DNA from: Pachysolen tannophilus NRRL Y-2460
Taxonomy: Eukaryota
Assembly (NCBI GenBank): GCA_001661245.1
Contig: KV454015.1
Coordinates: 670,924-734,923, forward strand
Direction: 5' to 3'
Length of the DNA: 64,000 bases
The notes under the pieces are model-generated. The model was not told the origin of the DNA, made no database searches, and worked only from the letters and a program-made list of their open reading frames with translations. Each line of letters starts with the position of its first letter. Position 1 is the first letter of the stretch. Position numbers and translations under genes: made by a program. Below, piece by piece: positions 17,765-55,125 of the stretch.

Positions 17765-18342
17765 CTCAAATAGAATTTTCTATATAAAAAGAAACCGATT
17801 AGATTGATTAAATTTAAATTAAATTAAATCTCAAATCTTTTGGTTTTATCAAATATTATTACTATTATTATTTATATACAACGGTTTTAACCAATAGAGA
17901 ATTACAGTACACTACTCTTGATTTCTTACAAGATTTTAATAAAGAATTTGATTATAATTAAGTTAATAAATAATATTGATTCAAATGATTTATCAAACCA
18001 TAGATCCTATAACAACAAGTATTGACAAATAGATTACAAAAGAACAATAACAAAATCATTTCAGTAGTAATAATAAAAAAAAATTTTTTTATTTTCTTTA
18101 TTGTTACTTGATCAAAAATAGCTTGTTGCGATAACGGTGTTTTTCCCGTTTTTTTCAAGAAAAATTCACTAATTTTTCATCAAATTTACGAAGAAGAAGA
18201 AAAATAGAAAAATATAAAAAAAAAAATTTTTTTTTTTTTTTACTTTTTATAGGGTATTTGTAATACAAATTATTAATCGTTAATTGGATTCAAAAGTGTT
18301 ATTTTTTTTTATTTATTGCTTGTTTATAAAGTTGAATAGGAT

Positions 18343-19146
18343 ATGCCAGAAATTATCCAAGAAGAAGATTTGAGTTTGGATGTTATAATAACACCTAGTC
18401 AGTTAGATCATTTAAATAAGACTTTATCGAATTTAACACCTCAAGAAATTATAAGATGGTCGATTATTACGTTTCCTAATTTATATCAAACAACTGCATT
18501 TGGTCTTACTGGATTAGCTATTTTAGATATGATAAGTAAATTAGAACCTATTGAAGGTTTAAAAATACATCCAGTTGATTTAATATTTATAGATACATTA
18601 CATCATTTTCCTCAAACTTTAGAATTAGTTGATAAAGTTAAATTAAAATATTCAAATTGTAAATTACATATTTTTAAACCTATTGATTGTGAAACTGAAA
18701 AAGATTTTAGTTTAAAATATGGAGAATTTTTATGGGAAAAGGAAGATGATAAATATGATTATTTAGTTAAAGTTGAACCTGCACTGAGAGCTTATAAAAA
18801 TTTAAAAGTATCTGCTGTATTTACTGGAAGAAGAAGATCTCAAGGAGGTGCAAGAAATTCTTTACCAATTATTGAATTAGAATCTACTACAAATATAATC
18901 AAGATAAACCCTTTAGCATCATGGGACTTCAGGCAAGTTCATGATTATATTAAAATAAATAATGTTCCATATAATGAATTATTAGATTATGGTTATAGAT
19001 CTGTTGGTGATTATCATTCAACTCAACCAGTTCAAGATGGTGAAGATGAAAGATCTGGTCGTTGGAAAGGTAAAATTAAAACAGAATGTGGAATTCATGA
19101 AACAAGTAGATTTGCTAATTTCTTGAATCAACAAAACAAAATATAA
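18343..19146 (+). CDS. MET16: PAPS reductase
   Basis: QTTAFGLTG, FIDTLHHFPQT, TGRRRSQG, GYRSVGDYHST, ERSGRW, KTECGIH. Confidence 0.96.
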   Translation: MPEIIQEEDLSLDVIITPSQLDHLNKTLSNLTPQEIIRWSIITFPNLYQTTAFGLTGLAILDMISKLEPIEGLKIHPVDLIFIDTLHHFPQTLELVDKVKLKYSNCKLHIFKPIDCETEKDFSLKYGEFLWEKEDDKYDYLVKVEPALRAYKNLKVSAVFTGRRRSQGGARNSLPIIELESTTNIIKINPLASWDFRQVHDYIKINNVPYNELLDYGYRSVGDYHSTQPVQDGEDERSGRWKGKIKTECGIHETSRFANFLNQQNKI

Positions 19147-19597
19147 TGTCATCATTTAATTATTTATTATATATATATATATGTCTTTTCAAGTATTTAT
19201 TATGGGTATTAATGGTTAAGAACCACTTTCCACTTTCCACTTTCCACTTCCTTTTTTTGTACTTTTATCCCGTAAAAAAAAGTAAAAATTTCCTCTAAAC
19301 AATAATAATTAAAAAAAAGGAGGTGTTTAATACTATATATATTTTTTAAACTACTTTCTTTAAAAAGAGAAAAAAAGCTTTATATCTAAATAACGCTAAT
19401 TTATAATTTATAATAATAATAATAATAATAATCTATTTTTATTAATACATCATTACTTTTCTTTTTTATATATATTCATATATATATAATATATATATAT
19501 ATATATGTATATATATTGATTGATTGATTGATTGTGACTATTAAGTATCTATATTTTAGTGAAAGATTAGAAAGATATAAGATATATTCAAATTAAG

Positions 19598-20327
19598 GTA
19601 TGTTTGATAATTTTAATTTTTTTTTTTTTTGATGTTTGTTGTTATCTCTCGTTGAATCGGAATCAGCCTTTTTTTTTAAGAGATCTCTGGGAATAAATTA
19701 AAAATAAACAAAAAAAAAATTTTTTAGTTCCTAGTTATTATAATCCGGGTTTTAATTAAAAGAAAATCAATCAATCTAATATTATTTTGTAAGGGCGCTT
19801 AATTGTTATAATTATATGATATTATATATATATATATATATATTATTTATTCCAATTATCCCAGTATAAAAATTGTTTTTTTTGGTAGATTTTCGGATTT
19901 TCCCCGTTTTCATTACTCCGTAAAGGTGAGCAAAAAATTTAAAAAAATTTAAAAAAAATTAAAAAAAATTAAAAAAAATTAAAAAAAAAAGGTGTGTGTA
20001 CTAAAATATAAGTGGTGTCACACGTCAACAAAATCAATTTTTTTTTTTTTTAAATTTAATTTTAATTTTTTTTTAATACAAAAAATTTTTAATATTGATA
20101 AACAATCCAATATAATTTGAATTTAATCTTCAAGTTAAATAGGAGTAGGAATTTTTAATAGAAAAAAGGAATAATTATTTATTTATTTTAATTTTTTTTT
20201 TTTTTTTTTTATAATTTTCTAAAAAAAAATTTCCGATTCAAAAGAGCAACGAACAATTAGTTGATTGATTTTTATAAAATCTTACTAACTCTTTATTTTT
20301 TATTTTTATTTTTATTTATTTGAATAG
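19598..20327 (+). other. Probable 730-nt 5'UTR intron of RHO1
   Basis: GTATGT 19598, TACTAAC 20283-20289, T-rich tract, TAG 20325-20327, ATG 20341. Confidence 0.65.
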
Positions 20328-20340
20328 ATAATAATATAAC

Positions 20341-20937
20341 ATGGTTCCTCCTCCTGCTGAAATTAGAAGAAAGTTGGTTATTGTTGGTGATGGTGCTTGT
20401 GGTAAGACATGTTTGTTGATTGTATTTTCAAAAGGTACATTTCCAGAAGTTTATGTTCCAACAGTTTTTGAAAATTATGTTGCAGATGTTGAAGTTGATG
20501 GTAGAAGGGTTGAATTGGCATTATGGGATACTGCTGGCCAAGAAGATTATGATAGATTGAGACCATTATCATATCCAGATTCAAATGTCATTTTGATTTG
20601 TTATTCTATTGATTTACCAGATTCTTTGGATAATGTTCAAGAAAAATGGATTTCCGAAGTTTTACATTTTTGTCAAGGTGTTCCAATCATTTTAGTTGGT
20701 TGTAAAGTTGATTTAAGAAATGACCCAAAGACTATTGAAGAATTAAGAGCTATTTCCCAGCAACCTGTTTCTGCATCAGAAGGTCAAGCTGTTGCTGATA
20801 AAATCGGTGCTTTAAAATATTTGGAATGTTCAGCAAAGACAGGTGAAGGTGTTAGAGAAGTTTTCGAAAATGCTACTAGAGCAAGTTTAATGGCAAAGGA
20901 AAAGAAAGAAAAGAAAAAGAAGTGTGTTGTTTTATAA
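20341..20937 (+). CDS. RHO1: Rho GTPase Rho1
   Basis: [35 protein letters not shown], polybasic tail plus CAAX CVVL. Confidence 0.97.
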
Positions 20938-20980
20938 TGAAATCAATAAAGTGAAAAAAAAAAGCAAAAGCAAAAGCAAA

Positions 20981-21023
<43 letters not shown>

Positions 21024-21137
21024 AAAAGGAGGAAAGAAAGAAAGAAAGAGACTATACTACATACTACAATTTATTAGTTTGTAAAATTGGTTGGTTTTCA
21101 TCATTTTCTGTTATTGTGTGTTTTTTTTTTTTTTTTT

Positions 21138-21619
21138 NNNNNNNNNNNNNNNNNNNNNNNNNNNNNNNNNNNNNNNNNNNNNNNNNNNNNNNNNNNNNNN
21201 NNNNNNNNNNNNNNNNNNNNNNNNNNNNNNNNNNNNNNNNNNNNNNNNNNNNNNNNNNNNNNNNNNNNNNNNNNNNNNNNNNNNNNNNNNNNNNNNNNNN
21301 NNNNNNNNNNNNNNNNNNNNNNNNNNNNNNNNNNNNNNNNNNNNNNNNNNNNNNNNNNNNNNNNNNNNNNNNNNNNNNNNNNNNNNNNNNNNNNNNNNNN
21401 NNNNNNNNNNNNNNNNNNNNNNNNNNNNNNNNNNNNNNNNNNNNNNNNNNNNNNNNNNNNNNNNNNNNNNNNNNNNNNNNNNNNNNNNNNNNNNNNNNNN
21501 NNNNNNNNNNNNNNNNNNNNNNNNNNNNNNNNNNNNNNNNNNNNNNNNNNNNNNNNNNNNNNNNNNNNNNNNNNNNNNNNNNNNNNNNNNNNNNNNNNNN
21601 NNNNNNNNNNNNNNNNNNN
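21138..21619. other. Assembly gap (N run)
   Basis: Run of n, preceded by poly(T). Confidence 0.99.
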
Positions 21620-22195
21620 ATGCCGTTTTATTTAGTTTTTTTTTATTTTATTTTTATTTTCTTTCTTTTTGTTTTTTTTCTTACCTTGCCTTGCCTTTTT
21701 TGCCTTGTTTATTCAGCTTTTCAAATCTTCATTTTTATACGTAATTAATACTTTTGGATTTATATATATCTTTTTTTTTTTTTTTTTTTTTTTTTATTAC
21801 TATTATTATTATTATTATTCGAAAAGAAGCTAAGGAAAAAACAAAAAAAAAAAAAAATTAAATAAAGAATTTATTACAATTGAGTGGTTTTAATATATAA
21901 AGAGGTCTAGATCTTATAATGAGACGTTTCTCATACTTAGATTTTTAAATTAAGTGTAGAAAGTTGTTGATGTTTTTCAATAGTGTTTGCTCCGACCAAT
22001 TTTTTTTAATTTTTTTTAATTTTTTTTTTTTTTTGTAGCTTCGCCTGGAAATAAGCCAATCTACACATTTACGTAACATAACATAATATAACATAAGTAA
22101 GTCGGTTTTTATTCCCAAATAATCTAGAATTTAATTAATAATAATAAAATAAATTAACAATATTAACAATATTAACAATATTAAATAATAAAAGA

Positions 22196-45695: not shown

Positions 45696-47116
45696 TCACT
45701 CGTCACCGATTTCTTCAACTGGTTCTTCACTATCAGTTTTATTCTCTTCAATGTTATTCTTCTTTTTCTCTTTTTTCAAAAAAGATAATTTTCTCAACCT
45801 TGAACCTGAGCTTTCCTTTGAAGAAAAAGAAGAACCAGCGGCTGTATTAGTAACAGGTGATAATAAGTTTGAGATATCATTATTATTATTATTATTATTA
45901 TTAGTGTCTGTACTACTTTCTGGAATCCCTGCAGCGCTGTTTGTCTCCATCGCAACTTGACCAGCACCTGAAGTAGGAAGCGATAACGTTAACAGAGGTA
46001 CTCCTGACATTCCGCTATTACTATTGCCGTTACTAGAATTTGTTGAACTGGATGTGCTTTGAGAATTTCTTTTTGTTCTTCTAAAAAATTTCTTAGAATG
46101 AGTTGTGCTAGAATTTGTATTATTCAAATTATGCAATTCATCATTAGTATCTTCTAATTCCTCCGAAATACTTTGTGAGTTTAATGATGGATGTTTTTCA
46201 TGCTTCATAGGAGAAGAACTACCTCCAAATAAAAACCTTTTTTTCAAGAAAGAAGGAGATGTTGGTTCCCTAATTCCATCATACGATGATTGCAGATGAG
46301 ACAAAAAGGAATCTTGATTTGAAGATTCTTTCGACAAAGTTGTTGAAGACCCCTTTGTTTGGATTTTTTGAATCGAAGATGACTCATTAGAAGGAGAACT
46401 CTTAAATATGGACAATCCGTTATTTGTTTCAACAGATAAAGGATCAGAGCCCAAATGTTGGATATTAATCATTGGACTAGCATTATTACTAGGAGAACTG
46501 ATGAAATCATCAAAGCTTGGCTGGTTGGCATGATGTGACCTATTATCCATACTCAATAAAGGACTTCCATAACCACTAAGGAAACCGGAAGTATTGCCAA
46601 CTGTTCCTGCATTGCTGCTCCAAATACTGTTAAAACTGTTGAAACTAGAACTTCTTGCTCTGTTTCCAGAGCCAATTTCTCCTGGAGTGGCAGCAGCACC
46701 TAATATTTGATGTCCTAGTCCAGACACACCAAGTTGGATTGGTGATGTCTTAAGTTCCTTTATATTGGTCTCTTGTTGAGCATGATGTTTTGGGGAAGTT
46801 TTCTCCTGCAGGGTCCTATTTTGAGCATTATGTGGTGTTTTTTTGGTCATAAAATTAAAAAATTTGGAAGAAGACACAGGATTACTGGATGTGCCATGAA
46901 CCGAGCCATTGTTATCGGTAGCAAGTGTAGCCGTGGCAGGATTATCTGATGGTTCAGGTATTGCTGAATCAATAGAATTACTAATATCAGTTTTCCTACC
47001 AAAGCCAAAAGCTTTCGATAATCTCCTAGGCGAAAAAGCAGAAGGCAGCGATTGTTCAAGATTTGGAAAATGACGCCCATGTACAACAGTATCATTATTA
47101 TTATTGTTGTTATTGC

Positions 47117-47161
<45 letters not shown>

Positions 47162-49499
47162 TATTATTATGGCCATCACCACCAAAATCATGAGAAGTAA
47201 TCCCGGTCGATAAACTGCTTCTTTCCGGCGAACCCAATGAATCAAAACCAGAGGAAAATTTATTGGATAGCTCATGTGAAATGTCAGGACTTAAAAATCG
47301 AGATTCACCAGAAAAAACGTTGGTTTTATTATTGCCATTATTGCCATTACCTGGTATTTTTGGAGAACCAAGATGCACCGAACCTGCAGATATTACCGAG
47401 TCACGGTATTTTGCAGAATTAAGAGAGCTTAATTCGTTTTGTTTGGATAAAGAATTATATTGAGCCGAGTACTCTGATAGTAAGTCATTAGTAGTAGCAT
47501 TGTTAACTACATTACTATTATTGATTGAGGGATAATTTTGAGCTGTGGAGTATGAATTCACAGAAAATATGCTATCAGCCGGCAAAATTAAACTTGCAGT
47601 ACCGTTCTTATCCTGTAATTGTGAACCAAAATCAAACATTTCATTATCAGTGTAATTCAACAAAGAATTAGGTAGCATCATATCAACACTTGGCTGAGGC
47701 TCAACCTCTTTATTATTGGAAGAAGAAGGTGTCTGAGTATTCAATATATTGTTCAGACTTAAATTCAAAGCACTTTTATGCTGTGAATCTGCAGATGAAA
47801 CTGCTGGAAATAGCCAGTCACTTGGAAATGTTGTATTTGAACTGTTCTGAAATAGGGACGGTAATGTTTGTTGTTGTTGTTGTTGTTGTTGCAATTGCAA
47901 TGGCTGCTGCAGGGTTGAATTAGCAGTTACAGCCGATCCAGTACTAGTTGCAGGATTAGCATTAGCATTAGCATTAGCATTACTGTTGTTATTACTTATG
48001 ACAGATAAGTAATGATCATACTTTGTTTCTACTGGGAAACTTTGGTCATAGCTTCTCTGAAGAGCTTTATTTGCATTATCATTCAGCGAATTAATTAACG
48101 AGTTATTTTGTTCTTTTAAAGTTTCATTCAAATTTCTGGCATCAAGGTAACGTTTCTGGTATTTAAGCTGAGCAGCCCTCCACTCTGCTAATAACCGAGA
48201 ATCTTCAACAATCTCTTTGCTTATTATATCAGCCCATTCTGGAATGATTTCTTTCAAACGTTGCAAAGATATTCCACCATCTTTTTGAACATTCCCATCT
48301 CCATCTGTAGATTTTTTCAAAGTTTCAAAAATAGGCATTAACTGAGTTTTCAAAGTTTCCAATTGTTTCCTCCTCAAATTTTTCTTTTTAAAAAATTCTT
48401 CCAAATTCTGATTTTCTTGTTGAACTCTAATGATTTCCTGATTTAAATTCAGAATCTCATCTTCTAATTTTTTAAATTCGCCTTCTTCATTTTCAACTAA
48501 TCCTACATTTGTTTCATGTTTTTGATTTAGAGTAGCTTCAAATTCCTCTAATTCTTTTTTCCGTTGTTCTATTGTTCTTCTTCTGGCCTCCAATGTGGCC
48601 TTTGCTTTCTCAATCTTTAATTCAAAATTCATCTTACTATCTTCTAAATAAGTAGTCTCTTGTTTCACTGAGAGACGATTTTTATCTTCCAATTTTTTTC
48701 TTTCTCTTAAATCGTTTCTGCTTGAAATCAATATTTGTTGCTGTTCTGCGAAATCAATATCTGATTGCCGCTGCTGTTCAATAACGATACTTAACTCTTC
48801 TTGACCTGACTCCAAATAAAACCTTAAATCTTCAATATTAGTTATCTTGTTTGGAGGAGGTGGAGGAACATTGTTTGAATCAGTCTCAATAGTGTTTCCT
48901 CTGGATCTCAGATCGTTTGATAATTGCTGTCTAAAAGTATCATGTAGTTTCAAACTATCGTTAAAATCTGTTGATGAATCTAATATAGAATTTAGATCAC
49001 CTACTATCCCAATATTATTATTCTCATTCGAAGCACATTCTTTATTACCATCATTAACTGCCTTCTTACAAGTCCTCACAAACACAGGACATGACTTTGA
49101 TCGAAAATGTAAATTATTAAAAGCAACAACATCAATCTGATAATGTGTATTAGGTAAAAGATTAGTTAGCAACACAGAATTTTGATTTCCTTCAAGTCGA
49201 TATACTTGTAACCCATTCACATAAACCACATAATATCCAAGATGTTTTTTCGAATCCTTTCCATAATTCACCGCTGATAAGGTATTATCTTCTTCTTCAC
49301 TATCCACTGACGTCGTACTATCCCAGTGTATCGCTACTGAATTTTCTGTTACACTATCGGTCGAAATCTTTGGTATTACAGGAACTGATATTGACAATAC
49401 CTTGATGATATAATTCGTCGGTAATTTGAATAACAACCAAAGCCTATATATCAACCATACCAATGCCAACGACGGCAACGCTAGTTGCCATATGAACAT
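45696..49499 (-). CDS. N-terminal TM + fibronectin type III + coiled-coil + N/S/Q-rich disordered protein
   Basis: Hydrophobic N-terminus; SVAIHWD..YVVYVNG..LTNLLPNTHYQIDVVAFN; long heptad region; polyN/polyQ tail. Confidence 0.75.
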
Positions 49500-49719
49500 G
49501 ATAGATACCTATATATATACAACAATCTTATTTCGATTTAATTGAAAAATTATAACAATAATTAACTGTCCAGATAACTCAGAAAAATTGATATTTTTTC
49601 AAAAACAAAAAAAATTTTCGATTTTTTTGTAGTTGCTTGGCAATGAGAAGTTGAAATAATTGAAATTTCCATTGAAACGGGTAGATATATAGAAGGTGTG
49701 AAGTGCTGAGTATGATAAG

Positions 49720-50568
49720 ATGACCTTGGTAACAGCTGAGAGACTAGTGAAGCTTTCACAGTATAAGCATTTGCAGAATTCATGGTATTATATTGCTGCT
49801 ACTGCATTAGCTACTTGTAATCAACCAGAAGAGATTTCTAAAATTTATCATATGGCTTTACAGATGACGAAGAAAGATTTTATTGCTAATGTAGATACTG
49901 CAAATGAAGCTATAGAGTTTGGTATGAAGGTTAGGGAAATTAATGCTAGGAATTATGTTCGAACAAGGAAATATCAACTTGATGTACCTATTTTTGATTT
50001 ATCAAATACTATTTCAAAACCTAATTTTAACCTGAAATTGATAACGTTGAAGACAAAAGAGGCCTTGTTGAAATCAGTGCCCATAGGTGGATTGCCTAAA
50101 TTTATCAATGCTATGATTGATTTCCATAACTCAGTACCGGAAAATTTACTTTATGACAAAGGTTATGAATCTTGTAGATCATTTATCATTAAGCTGGATT
50201 CCATAAAGAAGGAAAGAGAAAAAGGACAAGACTTATGGAATCTTGTTTATGGAAAAATTGCTCAAAAAGTTGCTTCGAATATTTCATATTCCTCAAAAGA
50301 TTTATGGGAATTTATATTGTATCATGTTTATTCTTCTTTGCTTTCGTATGATAAATATTTAGCCAAAAATGAAACCAGCCTTGTACTTATTGCTTGCTTA
50401 ATTCCACAGGATGTAAATCCACAATTAAAGGGCCATTTAAGAGGAGCTCTTAATACAGGTTGCACAAGAGAACAAATAGAAAGTGCTAGAGATATGACCA
50501 TTGAAATCTGTCAGTGGTGTGGTGTAAAATGGAAAGATGAAGTTGCAAATTTAAAGCCAAAGCTATGA
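49720..50568 (+). CDS. PXP2: AhpD/carboxymuconolactone decarboxylase-like protein (Pxp2/YJR111C-like), PTS1-like C-terminus
   Basis: EALLKS..GLPKFIN, ETSLVLIACLIPQDVNPQLKGHLRGALNTG; ends in PKL. Confidence 0.75.
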   Translation: MTLVTAERLVKLSQYKHLQNSWYYIAATALATCNQPEEISKIYHMALQMTKKDFIANVDTANEAIEFGMKVREINARNYVRTRKYQLDVPIFDLSNTISKPNFNLKLITLKTKEALLKSVPIGGLPKFINAMIDFHNSVPENLLYDKGYESCRSFIIKLDSIKKEREKGQDLWNLVYGKIAQKVASNISYSSKDLWEFILYHVYSSLLSYDKYLAKNETSLVLIACLIPQDVNPQLKGHLRGALNTGCTREQIESARDMTIEICQWCGVKWKDEVANLKPKL

Positions 50569-50704
50569 GAAAGAAAAAAAAAAAAATAATCACCAATTTC
50601 ATTAATTCATTCATAATCATTCATCTATTATACACATTTTCAAATTTAAAAAAAAAAAAAAGAATTAGAAATTAAATAAATATATACGCATTGCCATTAC
50701 TGGG

Positions 50705-52657
50705 TTAATGGCCATTACTATCACCTATGAATTGTATTGAAAATAAGTAACAATTAACTAAGATTTTTTTCAACTTCTCTATGCTTTCTAAAGAAATTTG
50801 ACTGTGGAAATATATTTTACCATTACCGTTTAATTTCAACTTTTGATTTTCTGCTAATTTAATTAAGATTCTTCTATCCATTTTCATCTTATCCATATCG
50901 ATTTCCAAAACATTCGTTGCAACTGGATACTTCAATGCTATTGATTTAGAATTCAAAAAACTTGCAACGTTTTTGGCCAATAAATGTGACTTGCGAATTC
51001 TGTTTACTAAACCGTTATAATCATTCAAACATACTAGAGACATTTTAGAATAGATACTAAAATCAATAAAACCTGGTCCGTGTTGTTGTATTTGGAAAAA
51101 TCTTGCCTTCTTTATATAATCATTATTTCCGACAAGTACTGAACCCATAGTACAAATAGTTGATGAAGCATTCAAGCAAATTGTAACCGATGTAGCAAAT
51201 TTACAATAATTTTTTATAGGAATGTTACTAACCACAGAAGCGTCCCAAATGTTTGAACCATCGAGATGCACTTTAATACCATTCTTATTGCACCATCTAT
51301 ATATCTTCTTTAATTCATTCAAAGGTAGTACTATACCGTGTCTTGTGCTTTGCAAAAATAAAGCCTTTGTTGGTGGAATACCATTTTCGACTTCATCTGG
51401 CGATATATAATGCGAAACCAAATCTTTTAGAGTAAGATATAGACCATTTGATGGCTCAACAGGTTTTAAAACAACTCCTGTCAAATTTCCCAACAATCCG
51501 GAATCATTGATGAAAAAATCACATTCTGCGTCACATAATATCGAATGAGGAGGATAATCTAAAAGCGTCCGCAGAGCTATTTGATTAGAAATAGTTGATG
51601 ATGTGGCAAAAATACCAGATTCCTTCCCTGTGACTTCACAAATTTTTTTAATTAATAATTTTGTATATGAGTCGTAATTACCAGAAATAGTATACGAATG
51701 GTTATCAGCCATATAATTTGAGGTAATGGTATTATTAGTAGGCCTACTTATACGATCTGATAAGTTGTTCTCATCAGGATCTTCCCTTTCATCCTCCTCA
51801 TCATCATCGTCATCATCATCTTCTTCATTATTTTGTTCTCCTAGATTTTGATGTTTCCTTTTATTACGCTGATGCTGCTCTCTTCTTTGATCATTCATCC
51901 GTATCTGCTGTTGTTGCTGCTGTTGCTGTTGTTGCTGTTGTTGTTGTTGTTGTTGTTGTAAGCTTTGTCGTCCTATTTGGTCTCTAGTATTGACTATTGA
52001 TGCATTCAACCCTGCTAGTAACATTTCCTTTGTAGGTTGTAATACCAGATCTGAGCTGAAATCATTAAAAGCTGTATTTATTTCAATCTTGATATTAAGT
52101 ATATCAGAATAAGGTCTTGATTCTTCATCATTGATAAGAAGTTCATTGATATCGTCTAAACTCAGCAGCGAATTTTGACGATGATGATGTTGCTGATGGA
52201 AATTATGGAAAATTGGAGCAATACTCTTATCGTGCAGTATCGACGGAAGCAAATCTACTTCTTGAGTAGAACTATTTGGAGCTCCTCCTACTGTTGTACC
52301 CGAAGTTGTTGCCGTACCAGCAGTACTGGTACCAGTACCGGTACCAAAATTCGATACTAAACTATTATGTCCAAATACAGCTTGCTCAATATCTAAAGCA
52401 TTATTATTATTAATACCATTCAAGGTAATATTGTCATTCGTATTACTATTCGTATTCGAATCAAGAGAATCTTGCTTCCTTATACCATGAGCTGTGGACC
52501 TCAAATGTCCACTTAAAGTCCCAGTTCCTTTAGAACGATCAAACATAAATACCCTTCCGCATAATCGACATTTTTCTTCCCTTGTCCGCTTATCTATATC
52601 TTGAATAAAATCAAAATAATGATATACCCAACTTCTCCTTTTATTTTCCTTGGGCAT
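50705..52657 (-). CDS. BED zinc finger fused to a degenerate Gly1-like threonine aldolase domain
   Basis: RRSWVYHYF..CRLC..GTGTLSGHLRSTAH; aligns by eye to the adjacent GLY1 (NDFSSD..PTKEML; GKESGIF..SNQI; PPHSILCD; LHLDG vs VHLDG); first ATG 52657. Confidence 0.85.
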   Translation of the reverse strand: MPKENKRRSWVYHYFDFIQDIDKRTREEKCRLCGRVFMFDRSKGTGTLSGHLRSTAHGIRKQDSLDSNTNSNTNDNITLNGINNNNALDIEQAVFGHNSLVSNFGTGTGTSTAGTATTSGTTVGGAPNSSTQEVDLLPSILHDKSIAPIFHNFHQQHHHRQNSLLSLDDINELLINDEESRPYSDILNIKIEINTAFNDFSSDLVLQPTKEMLLAGLNASIVNTRDQIGRQSLQQQQQQQQQQQQQQQQQQIRMNDQRREQHQRNKRKHQNLGEQNNEEDDDDDDDEEDEREDPDENNLSDRISRPTNNTITSNYMADNHSYTISGNYDSYTKLLIKKICEVTGKESGIFATSSTISNQIALRTLLDYPPHSILCDAECDFFINDSGLLGNLTGVVLKPVEPSNGLYLTLKDLVSHYISPDEVENGIPPTKALFLQSTRHGIVLPLNELKKIYRWCNKNGIKVHLDGSNIWDASVVSNIPIKNYCKFATSVTICLNASSTICTMGSVLVGNNDYIKKARFFQIQQHGPGFIDFSIYSKMSLVCLNDYNGLVNRIRKSHLLAKNVASFLNSKSIALKYPVATNVLEIDMDKMKMDRRILIKLAENQKLKLNGNGKIYFHSQISLESIEKLKKILVNCYLFSIQFIGDSNGH

Positions 52658-53010
52658 GATGGAGAGAGTCCACAGACTAAACCCCAATTGAATCCTTCAC
52701 AAAGAAACAAAATCTTAAATGTTTAACAAAAGTATTTTAATTATCTTATTATTATTAAATACCGTTCTTTTTTTTTTTTTTTTATTAGCATTTTTATTAC
52801 TTATATTCGAGAAAACTACAGGATTTAAAATTGATTTTAAAAAGAAGAAGAACAAAAACCAATACAAAACTTTTAATAGTAATAATTATAATAATTTCTA
52901 TTAAAATATATAATGATATATGATAATTAAATAATAGTTAATAATAACAAATTCCTAGATTCCTACTACCGCCAATTTTCGAGTTATTTTTGTGTCATTT
53001 GAAGTTTGAT

Positions 53011-54111
53011 TTAACGATTATTTATGTCGTAAATTCTAGCTGGTGCTGTCAGGTAAAATGGATGTTCTAAAGAATGTAAATAAGTATCGTAAATTGCTTT
53101 TTTAACATTTTCAAAACTTTCTTGTGAAATTTGGAAATGGAAAGAGACTCTACAACCCATTTGTTTGACGTTATATTTCTTTGCATTAGCAAGTAATACT
53201 TCATTACTCATTTTCATTTTGTTCATATCTAAAAAGACAAAATTTGTATGAACTGGACATTCCAATGCAATATTATTTTCTTCACAAAATTTTCCCAATT
53301 CTTTTGCCATTTCATGAGATCTTTTAATCTTTGATAAATTTTGATCAATTGCAATACTTGCCATTCTTGCTAACATACCACCTTGTCTAATACCACCACC
53401 ATTTTGTTTTTTGAAATGATTAGCTTTGGCAATGAAATCAGGATTTCCAACCAAGACAGAACCAATTGGAGCACCCAATGATTTCGATAAACATAAGGAA
53501 ACAGAGTCAAAATAAGAACAATATTCTTTTATTGAAATTCCTGTTTCTACAGAAGCATTCCATAATCTTGCACCATCCAAATGTAATTTGACATTATTTT
53601 CTTTACACCAAGCAGAGATTCTCTTAATTTCATCCAAAGGAAACAACAATCCATGCAACGTGTTTTCCAAAGAAATAACTTTTGTTGGTGCAGCATGAAT
53701 ATTACCATCATCTGGAATGAAATTATCAATTATATCTTCCAAAGTTAAATGAATCCCATTTGCCGGATGAACAGCAGAAACCATCGCTTGAGACAAAGTA
53801 GCCAACCCACCTGCCTCATGCAAATAGACATGACCTCTATAATCACATAATACAGAATGAGGTGGTTGATGTAAATTAGCTCTTAACCCGATTTGATTTG
53901 ATAAAGTACCAGAAACACAAAACAATCCAGCCTCTTTCCCAGCCAAATCAGCAACCTTCTTTTCAAGATCCAAAGTATCTTTATCCTCCTGGTAAACAGA
54001 ATCACCTAAACTGGAAACCAAAGCAGCTTCTAACATCTCCTTAGTAGGAACAGTAAAAGTATCACTTCTAAACTCATTATGAGCACGGGTAAACTCCGAA
54101 CTAGAAGCCAT
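53011..54111 (-). CDS. GLY1: Low-specificity L-threonine aldolase
   Basis: NEFRSDTFT, SGTLSNQI, HVYLHEAGG, LENTLHG, HLDGARLWNA, CLSKSLGAPIGS (PLP Lys). Confidence 0.96.
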   Translation of the reverse strand: MASSSEFTRAHNEFRSDTFTVPTKEMLEAALVSSLGDSVYQEDKDTLDLEKKVADLAGKEAGLFCVSGTLSNQIGLRANLHQPPHSVLCDYRGHVYLHEAGGLATLSQAMVSAVHPANGIHLTLEDIIDNFIPDDGNIHAAPTKVISLENTLHGLLFPLDEIKRISAWCKENNVKLHLDGARLWNASVETGISIKEYCSYFDSVSLCLSKSLGAPIGSVLVGNPDFIAKANHFKKQNGGGIRQGGMLARMASIAIDQNLSKIKRSHEMAKELGKFCEENNIALECPVHTNFVFLDMNKMKMSNEVLLANAKKYNVKQMGCRVSFHFQISQESFENVKKAIYDTYLHSLEHPFYLTAPARIYDINNR

Positions 54112-54256
54112 TTTCCTCAATATATTTTAATAAAATACAATACTATATTATCAACAATATTTTGCACAAAATCAAAAAAAAAAATATCTTAAATACAACA
54201 AAATTAAAAGATGAAAGAAAAATTTGATTACTTGGTTATTCTTGATATTTAATACT

Positions 54257-55125
54257 TGATTAGTCACTTGGCTACCCAAAGAAGCTGCTGCAGTTTTTTT
54301 TTTTTTTTTTTGAAAAATTTTAGGCCAAAAACAAATAAAAAAAAAAAAAAGAAATTTCTCCAGAAGGAGAAGTATTATATATTTAAGTCAGAAACTTCTC
54401 CGGCTACATTGTATTTGTCAGGTTGGCTGTTAGCATTACATATTTATGTAATGCTACTTCTCCACTTTATTGTTCCGAAATGCTTCCCCAATAGCGGAAA
54501 AACTTAAAAAAGGAGAAAAAAAATTGAAAAAAATTTTTTTTCCATCTTCTCCGTTTTCCATTTTTCCTCCTCATGAAAAGCTGTTTTGCGGGTAAATCTA
54601 GCTGGACTAAACGGCTTCTTCCTGATAGGCTGATGGAGACTTCTTGGTCAAGAGAACAAACAGAAAACAGTGTTGAAACAAGGTCAATAGGAGGAGGCAT
54701 ATGGAGGAGATGCTGATCTTTTCCAGCTAGTCGCAGTTACCAGATAAGATAAGGTAGATCAGATGTAGGTTTGAAAGCAGCTTTATCCGTTTATTTGCGG
54801 CTCGATCTTTCTTGAAAGTGACTCTTCTCCATATCTGACTCCGGACATAAAGGAAGAGGTCAATAACAAGTCAACAATGGTGCGGCTTACAGAGTCAGAA
54901 GTGAATTTTTTTTTCTTTTTGGAAAATTGTAGTTAGTTTAGTTGTGTTATCTATTATCCATGATATGTTATGATGATGTTCTGAGGAGAATTCGAATATT
55001 GTTGATGTGTAAGGCTGGCAGGGCTATTTTTTAGCTTTTTTTTTTTTTTTTTTTTTTATGTATTTTTTTGTTGTTGTTGTCGGAATGGTTTTCCACCTGC
55101 GCTGCATTGCCTGCCCAGATAAGGT
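54257..55125. promoter_or_regulatory. Divergent GLY1/permease promoter with Gcn4-like and GATA sites
   Basis: TGACTC 54819 and 54836, GAGTCA 54892, TTAGTCA 54260; GATAAG twice near 54742-54752 and once near 55118. Confidence 0.5.

Follow-up and report, generated by a model that had tools for sequence, protein, structure and literature searches.

The 64,000-nt window analysed here (positions 670,924 to 734,923 of contig KV454015.1 from the yeast Pachysolen tannophilus NRRL Y-2460; all coordinates below are those of the window) carries, next to GLY1, the gene for a low-specificity L-threonine aldolase, an open reading frame (ORF) in which a probable BED-type zinc finger is fused to an aldolase domain whose catalytic residues have been replaced. 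The encoded protein is, we propose, a real and selected single-polypeptide chimera, whose most likely role is that of a sequence-specific DNA-binding regulator with the dead aldolase as an oligomerising scaffold; our confidence in this reading as a whole is evenly balanced. The original prediction, made from the DNA letters, described an intact ORF of ~650 amino acids (aa) lying ~350 nt downstream of GLY1 on the same strand, and this is what is found: 650 codons and a stop, 353 nt downstream. Its segments, all in a single frame, are as follows:

50705..52657, minus strand: whole fusion ORF, 650 codons plus stop, with BED finger, linker and split dead-aldolase domain (ORF list, translation)
52487..52633, minus strand: BED-type zinc finger, residues 9-57, with W10, Y12, F15 and C30, C33, H51, H57 (Pfam zf-BED, ESM Atlas)
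52085..52477, minus strand: low-complexity linker, residues 61-191, 47% N/Q/S/T/G with a His-rich patch, without family match
51962..52084, minus strand: N-terminal aldolase-fold piece, residues 192-232 (FSSD....PTKEML; BLASTP high-scoring segment pair, yeast-GLY1 hidden Markov model)
51710..51961, minus strand: low-complexity insert within the aldolase domain, residues 233-316 (composition)
50708..51709, minus strand: aldolase core, residues 317-650, with the catalytic set replaced (Pfam Beta_elim_lyase, E 3e-41 over residues 299-589)

The aldolase part of the fusion is homologous to GLY1 in two pieces. BLASTP aligns fusion residues 335-642 with GLY1 residues 49-349 (126/308 identities, 41%, E 1e-79), and a second segment pair joins fusion residues 192-238 to GLY1 residues 6-52 (17/47 identities, E 6e-5); a profile built from 21 budding-yeast GLY1 proteins likewise matches the fusion twice, at residues 194-224 (profile positions 6-36) and 299-637 (profile positions 13-342). 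The earlier statement that the C-terminal part aligns with GLY1 over nearly its full length is thus upheld over the 308 columns, but has to be refined in that a low-complexity insert of ~84 aa splits the homology; the Beta_elim_lyase match that had been expected is found. The N-terminal piece alone scores 13.5 bits against the yeast-GLY1 model, a value reached by 0/300 shuffled sequences, whereas residues 295-329, considered as a possible second N-terminal piece, add only 6 bits, a value reached by 10/300 shuffles, and were regarded as a weak candidate. On this comparison we read the aldolase homology as probably starting near residue 192 before it is broken by the insert; MAFFT, Pfam and AlphaFold 2 (AF2) instead start it at ~299, a placement that we judge to be alignment-driven.

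The fold itself is retained. The AF2 model of residues 186-650, made from 68 aligned rows, has a mean predicted local distance difference test (pLDDT) score of 87.6, with 10-residue block means in the core of mostly 85-99 (range 77-99), and the closest solved chain to the core is the Thermotoga maritima aldolase 1JG8 (HMMER, E 1.2e-27). The insert contains a run of 18 Gln (residues 234-251), KRK (266-268) and a D/E run of 13 residues (278-290), a composition that appears typical of regulators. The ORF has five CTG codons (141, 164, 165, 204 and 362). Codon 362 (51574-51572) stands where the SNQIALR motif has its conserved Leu and is Ala in the fusion protein; through it, translation with the standard code slightly inflates the similarity between fusion and GLY1.

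Loss of the active site was assessed by scoring the catalytic columns in an alignment of the fusion with 109 homologues, each of at least 300 aa:

Schiff-base Lys: CLSKSLG becomes CLNASST (fusion residues 494-500), without Lys; K in 108/109 homologues
Arg of DGAR: R182 becomes N469 (DGSN); R in 109/109 homologues
Stacking His: H94 becomes D380 (DYRGHVY to DAECDFF); H in 104/109 homologues
Second His: H139 becomes G (GNIHAAPT to VENGIPPT); H in 87/109 homologues
Glu of LENT: becomes Q436; E in 109/109 homologues
Arg of GGGIRQ: becomes I531; R in 102/109 homologues

All of the replacements that had been named beforehand, i.e. those of the pyridoxal phosphate (PLP) Schiff-base Lys (K210 of GLY1, codon 53484-53482), the stacking His, the second His and the Arg, are present as described. 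The HMMER alignment to 1JG8 gives the same replacements as the alignment with the 109 homologues; the equivalent of Lys222 is replaced and that of Arg308 is Lys. The fusion keeps the Asp that contacts PLP-N1, from the DGAR motif, as well as the SNQ Asn, and the phosphate-loop residues of the SxT..NQ motif are partly kept, the equivalents of D179, S67, T69 and N72 being listed as retained.

A review of threonine aldolases (TAs; PMC4761611) describes the enzyme as homotetrameric, its active site lying where the two subunits of a dimer meet; in its account the PLP-bearing Schiff-base lysine is Lys199 in tmTA and Lys197 in ecTA, Arg169 together with Arg308 binds the carboxylate of the substrate, and Lys222 helps to position the catalytic water. 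The same review (PMC4761611) reports that His83 mutants of the E. coli enzyme release PLP and that the equivalent His is the sole absolutely required residue among four tested in another aldolase. By the family's own criteria the predicted fusion protein cannot be an aldolase, and it seems unlikely to bind PLP or amino acids in the canonical manner. With the Schiff-base Lys, the stacking, PLP-holding His and the equivalents of both Arg169 and Lys222 gone, canonical sensing of Thr, Gly or PLP by the aldolase fold, as put forward in the original prediction, is disfavoured. A one-component regulator of a looser kind, in which non-covalent binding of PLP, an amino acid or a related metabolite in the aldolase pocket would switch DNA binding, is in our judgement improbable. 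It can draw on the analogy with bacterial MocR/GabR proteins, in which a DNA-binding domain is joined to a fold-type-I PLP domain, on the partial retention of the PLP-N1 Asp and phosphate-loop residues, and on the nearness of GLY1 and an amino-acid permease gene; yet it must accommodate not only the losses just listed but also those of the LENT Glu and of Arg at the 308 position, together with the release of PLP already caused by the single His83 change in E. coli TA (PMC4761611).

The N-terminal region has the pattern C30-x2-C33-x17-H51-x5-H57, preceded by S9-W10-V11-Y12-H13-Y14-F15. Its Cys-to-His spacing is 17, compared with 12 in a classical C2H2 finger, and we take the complete CCHH set and aromatic lead-in to fit the BED signature, Cx2C...Hx3-5[H/C]. 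Pfam zf-BED (PF02892) matches residues 11-54 over profile positions 3-41 of 44, with E 0.002 against the whole library and 18.6 bits, under the family's gathering score of 20.6. In the ESM Atlas, residues 1-64 give feature scores of 0.90-0.91 to zf-BED clusters, 14/30 matches lie in a zf-BED-carrying family set, and the model of the finger superimposes on ZBED1-type clusters with TM scores of 0.76 and 0.75 over 62 and 60 residues, all of these matches being marked as under the bar for naming a family. The N-terminal BED finger of the original prediction stands as regards its zinc ligands and its lead-in; the zf-BED match, whose absence would have spoken against the prediction, exists but lies below the curated Pfam cut-off. 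The support for a BED-type finger is good, though below that threshold. Neither a hAT dimerisation or RNase-H-like transposase domain nor a GntR or winged helix-turn-helix domain gave a Pfam match in the fusion at E <= 1, and no hAT-like ORF or other BED copy was found among the 22 other ORFs of the window that were scanned. Around the fusion gene, a scan for repeats, another BED copy and the ends of transposons found only poly-A/T tracts and a stretch shared between the paralogues (51531-51563 with 53843-53875, 82%).

A frame of this length would not be expected to survive neutral divergence. When the GLY1 coding sequence was allowed to decay neutrally to 41% identity, with the base composition of the window, transitions at twice the rate of transversions and indels ignored, 0/2000 runs were free of stops (mean 16.3, minimum 5), and the DNA of the fusion contains 26-80 stops per ~649 codons in each of its other five frames. 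With codon tables derived from 20 other genes of the window, the coding potential of the whole fusion ORF is 0.41 bits/codon, within the range of those genes (0.31-0.68; their off-frames, -1.16 to -0.50), and all five of its segments score as coding in frame (0.19, 0.59, 0.35, 0.28 and 0.42 bits/codon, the linker having the value of 0.59). Because no neutral decay remained stop-free and all five segments score as coding, the data support the view that selection has kept the frame open. Retention also follows family constraint, identity to the yeast consensus falling with column conservation from 44/75 (59%) at invariant columns through 42/91 and 31/92 to 22/94 (23%) at variable ones. The dN/dS check proposed with the original prediction was run on the fusion-GLY1 pair by the NG86 method, with dN (0.51) below dS (1.43) over 301 aligned codons; with a proportion of synonymous differences (pS) of 0.64 and dS near saturation, this ratio is a rough bound only. 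A rough split of branch lengths suggests that omega in the fusion lineage could be about 0.6 or lower, i.e. relaxed, not neutral.

These results bear on a distinctly unlikely alternative, in which the gene is a young functionless chimera drifting to loss and its open frame a leftover. In its favour are the occurrence in one species with no orthologue found, the long branch described below, the loss of the catalytic residues, the fact that the fusion is missing from the annotated protein set, and the lack of an RNA run among the 7 sequencing runs listed, which by itself says nothing on expression. It has difficulty with the outcome of the decay simulations at 41% identity, even though these ignored indels, with the way in which retention tracks the family's conservation gradient, with dN being smaller than dS, and with a linker and an insert that score as coding in frame beside five other frames full of stops.

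A maximum-likelihood tree with 41 rows groups the fusion with the GLY1 proteins of budding yeasts, inside their clade (22 rows; support 99/96), but does not settle its position there. Its end branch is 2.63, compared with 0.32 for the neighbouring GLY1, which is the nearest row by path; forcing the two to be sisters costs 0.00 log-likelihood units and is not rejected (p-AU 0.45). The original proposal of a tandem GLY1 duplicate is supported to this extent, and the data are consistent with, though no proof of, a local tandem duplication; long-branch effects apply.

Further support for the locus comes from Logan contigs of three runs from two studies, which have 0 other letters than the window in 49500-51785 and 51967-54278. 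Contigs and window differ only in three homopolymer lengths, all outside ORFs: in all three runs there are extra letters at 50573 (AAA), 54173 (A) and 54905 (T), all intergenic, which are probably small errors of the window's assembly. The finger, linker and first aldolase piece share one contig with GLY1 (51967-54278), and the core follows in GLY1's order and in frame, on which grounds a chimeric assembly is very unlikely. The interval that separates the two matched stretches, 51786-51966, is a repeat of CAA and GAT type coding for the polyQ and acidic runs. It is the basis for supposing an assembly or gene-model artefact, in which a mis-sized trinucleotide repeat would link an aldolase pseudogene to a small, separate BED ORF, as the contigs of all three runs end at 51786 and restart at 51967, leaving the repeat unbridged. 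We find this scarcely credible: the repeat is flanked upstream by a GLY1-like piece (192-232) and downstream by what remains of the fold, all in one frame and ordered as in GLY1; finger and upstream piece are on GLY1's contig without a differing letter; repeats of these types vary by whole codons; and the 131-codon linker is stop-free in DNA of ~32% G+C.

The parent gene and the spacer that separates it from the fusion are:

53011..54111, minus strand: GLY1, low-specificity L-threonine aldolase, intact parent gene, 366 aa (Pfam Beta_elim_lyase, E 1e-92)
52658..53010, no strand: AT-rich spacer of 353 nt from the GLY1 stop to the fusion start, which may hold the GLY1 terminator and the fusion promoter

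In GLY1 every catalytic residue checked is present. Its translation is identical letter for letter to an NCBI/UniRef entry when table 26 is used, and not with table 1 or 12, which indicates that CUG is read as Ala in the source yeast and bears out the assumption made in the original prediction. The spacer contains one TATAWAW match, at 52907. The divergent promoter region between GLY1 and the permease is 1117 nt long and holds three TGACTC/GAGTCA cores within 75 nt (54819, 54836 and 54892), which we take to be of Gcn4/Bas1 type; there are none upstream of the fusion gene, and no connection of these cores with the fusion protein was seen. The full Gcn4 site, TGASTCA, does not occur in the three intergenic regions scanned.

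The window as a whole is AT-rich yeast chromosomal DNA (G+C 18.5-36% in 2-kb windows), with nuclear genes for SET-domain, CybS/SDH4, AFG1, phosphoadenosine phosphosulfate (PAPS) reductase, Ras-family, sulfite-reductase-like flavoprotein, major facilitator superfamily (MFS), Anp1, amino-acid permease, SMC and myotubularin proteins; no tRNA genes were found in it. Its AT-richest stretch is 18001-22000, where two successive 2-kb windows have 22% and 18.5% G+C, and the PAPS-reductase gene (18343-19146) and the Ras-family gene (20341-20937) fall within it. An ORF of 1267 aa at 45696-49499 on the minus strand has a single fibronectin type III match (E 1.3e-5) and is otherwise of low complexity, with long poly-N, poly-Q and Ser-rich tracts and without family assignment.

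Relatives of the fusion were sought in several collections. An exhaustive phmmer search over 1.84 billion representatives gave 1996 matches at E <= 1e-3, the best being an ordinary aldolase of 376 aa with 38% identity; among the 150 best-scoring stretches of these matches none begins before query residue 235, and zf-BED is absent from the 13 matches scanned (11 of at least 445 aa, plus P0031, of 376 aa). The 90%-identity cluster of P0031 contains, together with the Diutina rugosa threonine aldolase, a record labelled Kocuria palustris (MCH0628560.1), which has the look of a wrongly labelled entry or of yeast DNA that has entered a bacterial assembly. Word searches returned only ordinary aldolases of 357-445 aa; for the finger (residues 1-64) there were 2 candidates, none of which scored, and the whole-protein word search, swamped by polyglutamine and acidic words, gave 2 matches among 8000 candidates, neither of them useful. 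The whole-protein search of the ESM Atlas returned aldolase clusters only, although the Atlas holds the standard-code fusion protein letter for letter, and a metagenome scan gave 617 pattern matches and no relative. The architecture, sought in other proteomes as had been suggested, was thus found in none of the 1.84 billion representatives, and the statement that no BED-aldolase fusion had been described agrees with these searches and with the literature searched, in which we found no paper on a BED finger with a threonine aldolase and, on threonine aldolase with pseudoenzymes or on Pachysolen with GLY1, only unrelated ones; for zf-BED in Saccharomycotina there was one survey, which only lists zf-BED among fungal transcription factor families.

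Taken as a regulator, the protein may have arisen and may work as follows. A tandem duplicate of GLY1 would have lost PLP binding and catalysis to become a pseudoenzyme, and would have acquired an N-terminal BED-type finger, an N/T/G-rich linker and the polyQ/basic/acidic insert. The finger would bind DNA, as fingers of ZBED/DREF/BEAF-type regulators do; the aldolase fold, of a tetramer-forming type, would take the place of the hAT dimerisation domain and present between two and four BED fingers. An effector or activation surface could be supplied by the acidic and polyQ runs, and the KRK/KRR clusters may serve nuclear import. Threonine aldolases are homotetramers, and the dead fold seems more likely to be an oligomerising scaffold than a sensor of PLP or amino acids. 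A regulatory role is plausible; control of GLY1 and the neighbouring permease, as suggested in the original prediction, gained no support. A more ambitious version, in which the capture of a BED finger by a dead copy of a PLP enzyme has produced a eukaryotic counterpart of the MocR design that binds DNA multivalently and controls glycine/threonine metabolism through GLY1 and the divergent permease, possibly while pairing with Gly1, is tentative and on the unlikely side.

The retained fold invites a different explanation, which we rate as unlikely, in which the dead subunit co-assembles with Gly1 to titrate, poison or relocate the aldolase, the finger being secondary or serving protein contacts. 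Duplicates of homomers often still cross-assemble, and here the two genes are neighbours with the same orientation. The homotetrameric state of threonine aldolase, whose subunits share active sites at the dimer interface (PMC4761611), is also in its favour. The explanation does not account, however, for the in-frame upkeep of a CCHH finger, a 131-aa linker and a polyQ/acidic insert, and at 41% identity, with 31/75 of the invariant aligned columns changed, the interface for pairing with Gly1 may be lost.

Set against the regulator reading are the following points. The fusion is known so far from one CUG-Ala yeast only, so conservation of its architecture is unproven; no orthologue was found by phmmer, word searches or the metagenome scan, in libraries that lack some yeast proteomes; and the protein is not in a 15-billion NCBI-derived collection under tables 1, 12 or 26, where the gene seems to be unannotated. 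The finger scores under the Pfam gathering score, AF2 modelling of residues 1-75 without an alignment was uninformative (pLDDT 48.6), a PDB sequence search with residues 1-67 gave 0 matches at E <= 10, and BED fingers can also serve non-DNA roles. Changes are present at 31/75 invariant aligned columns, a 32nd invariant column of GLY1 lying past the C-terminal end of the fusion; the branch is ~8 times longer than that of GLY1; and, with dS close to saturation, an omega of about 0.6 in the fusion lineage would mean strongly relaxed constraint. None of the contigs from the three runs spans 51786-51966, which separates the part with the BED finger from the aldolase core. That no orthologue was found is weak evidence, because the libraries clearly lack some yeast proteomes and Logan-derived pieces of the fusion gene itself were not found either.

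New transcription factors are thought to arise mostly from duplicated older ones or from domesticated transposases, and the fusion joins in one gene a duplicate of a metabolic enzyme and a transposon-type finger. As it still lies beside its parent, the sequence in which duplication, loss of catalysis, capture of a domain and low-complexity inserts came about can be reconstructed. If the regulator reading is true, the gene would provide a clean model of how a pseudoenzyme can become a regulator and a fresh, datable birth of a transcription factor from an enzyme duplicate; if the protein is inert, it would still be a well-defined, long-lived orphan chimera kept open by selection.

Several known systems resemble the fusion in part. 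Like the low-specificity L-threonine aldolases (GLY1; T. maritima 1JG8/1LW4/1LW5/1M6S; E. coli 4LNJ), with which it is homologous across the fold-type-I domain, it has the aldolase fold, but unlike them it is without the catalytic set, is split by the ~84-aa insert and has ~190 extra N-terminal residues with a finger. BED regulators that descend from hAT transposases form multimers through a C-terminal domain. The fusion shares with proteins of the ZBED1/DREF, ZBED6, BEAF-32 and CGGBP type an N-terminal BED-type CCHH finger with a W/Y/F lead-in, a finger that binds DNA in the hAT-derived regulators; it differs in being without a hAT dimerisation or RNase-H-like domain, in having a dead metabolic enzyme at the C-terminal place, and in a finger that is below the Pfam cut-off. 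A dead-enzyme regulator in yeast is Gal3, derived from Gal1, which has no DNA-binding domain and has kept ligand binding. Like Gal3, the fusion is a duplicate of a metabolic enzyme that has lost catalysis and would act in regulation; unlike Gal3, it carries an added finger of DNA-binding type and has lost the canonical ligand contacts.

Among fungal proteins, a 668-aa protein of Bifiguratus adelaidae (OZJ06480.1, cluster P0045) has an N-terminal Copper-fist domain (E 1.5e-17) joined through a long linker to a C-terminal Beta_elim_lyase domain, and is unlike the fusion in its DNA-binding domain and in its intact catalytic motifs (CLSKGIGAP, DYRSHVY, CDGAR); as a single-member cluster from a distant phylum, it may be either an independent architecture of DNA-binding domain and aldolase or a merged gene model. 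The bacterial MocR/GabR/PdxR regulators resemble the fusion in having a DNA-binding domain of ~60 aa, a linker and a ~350-aa domain of fold-type-I, PLP-like character that is no longer a metabolic enzyme. They use a GntR winged helix and an aminotransferase-like domain with PLP kept as effector, whereas the fusion has a BED finger, a threonine-aldolase parent, no PLP Lys and a eukaryotic host; it is an analogue of MocR, not a member, and the MocR/GabR family comes closest to it in design. If it binds DNA, it would be an independently built eukaryotic analogue of the bacterial PLP-fold regulators. The fusion joins the known themes of enzyme-derived or pseudoenzyme regulators and of captured BED fingers in an architecture that is itself unusual.

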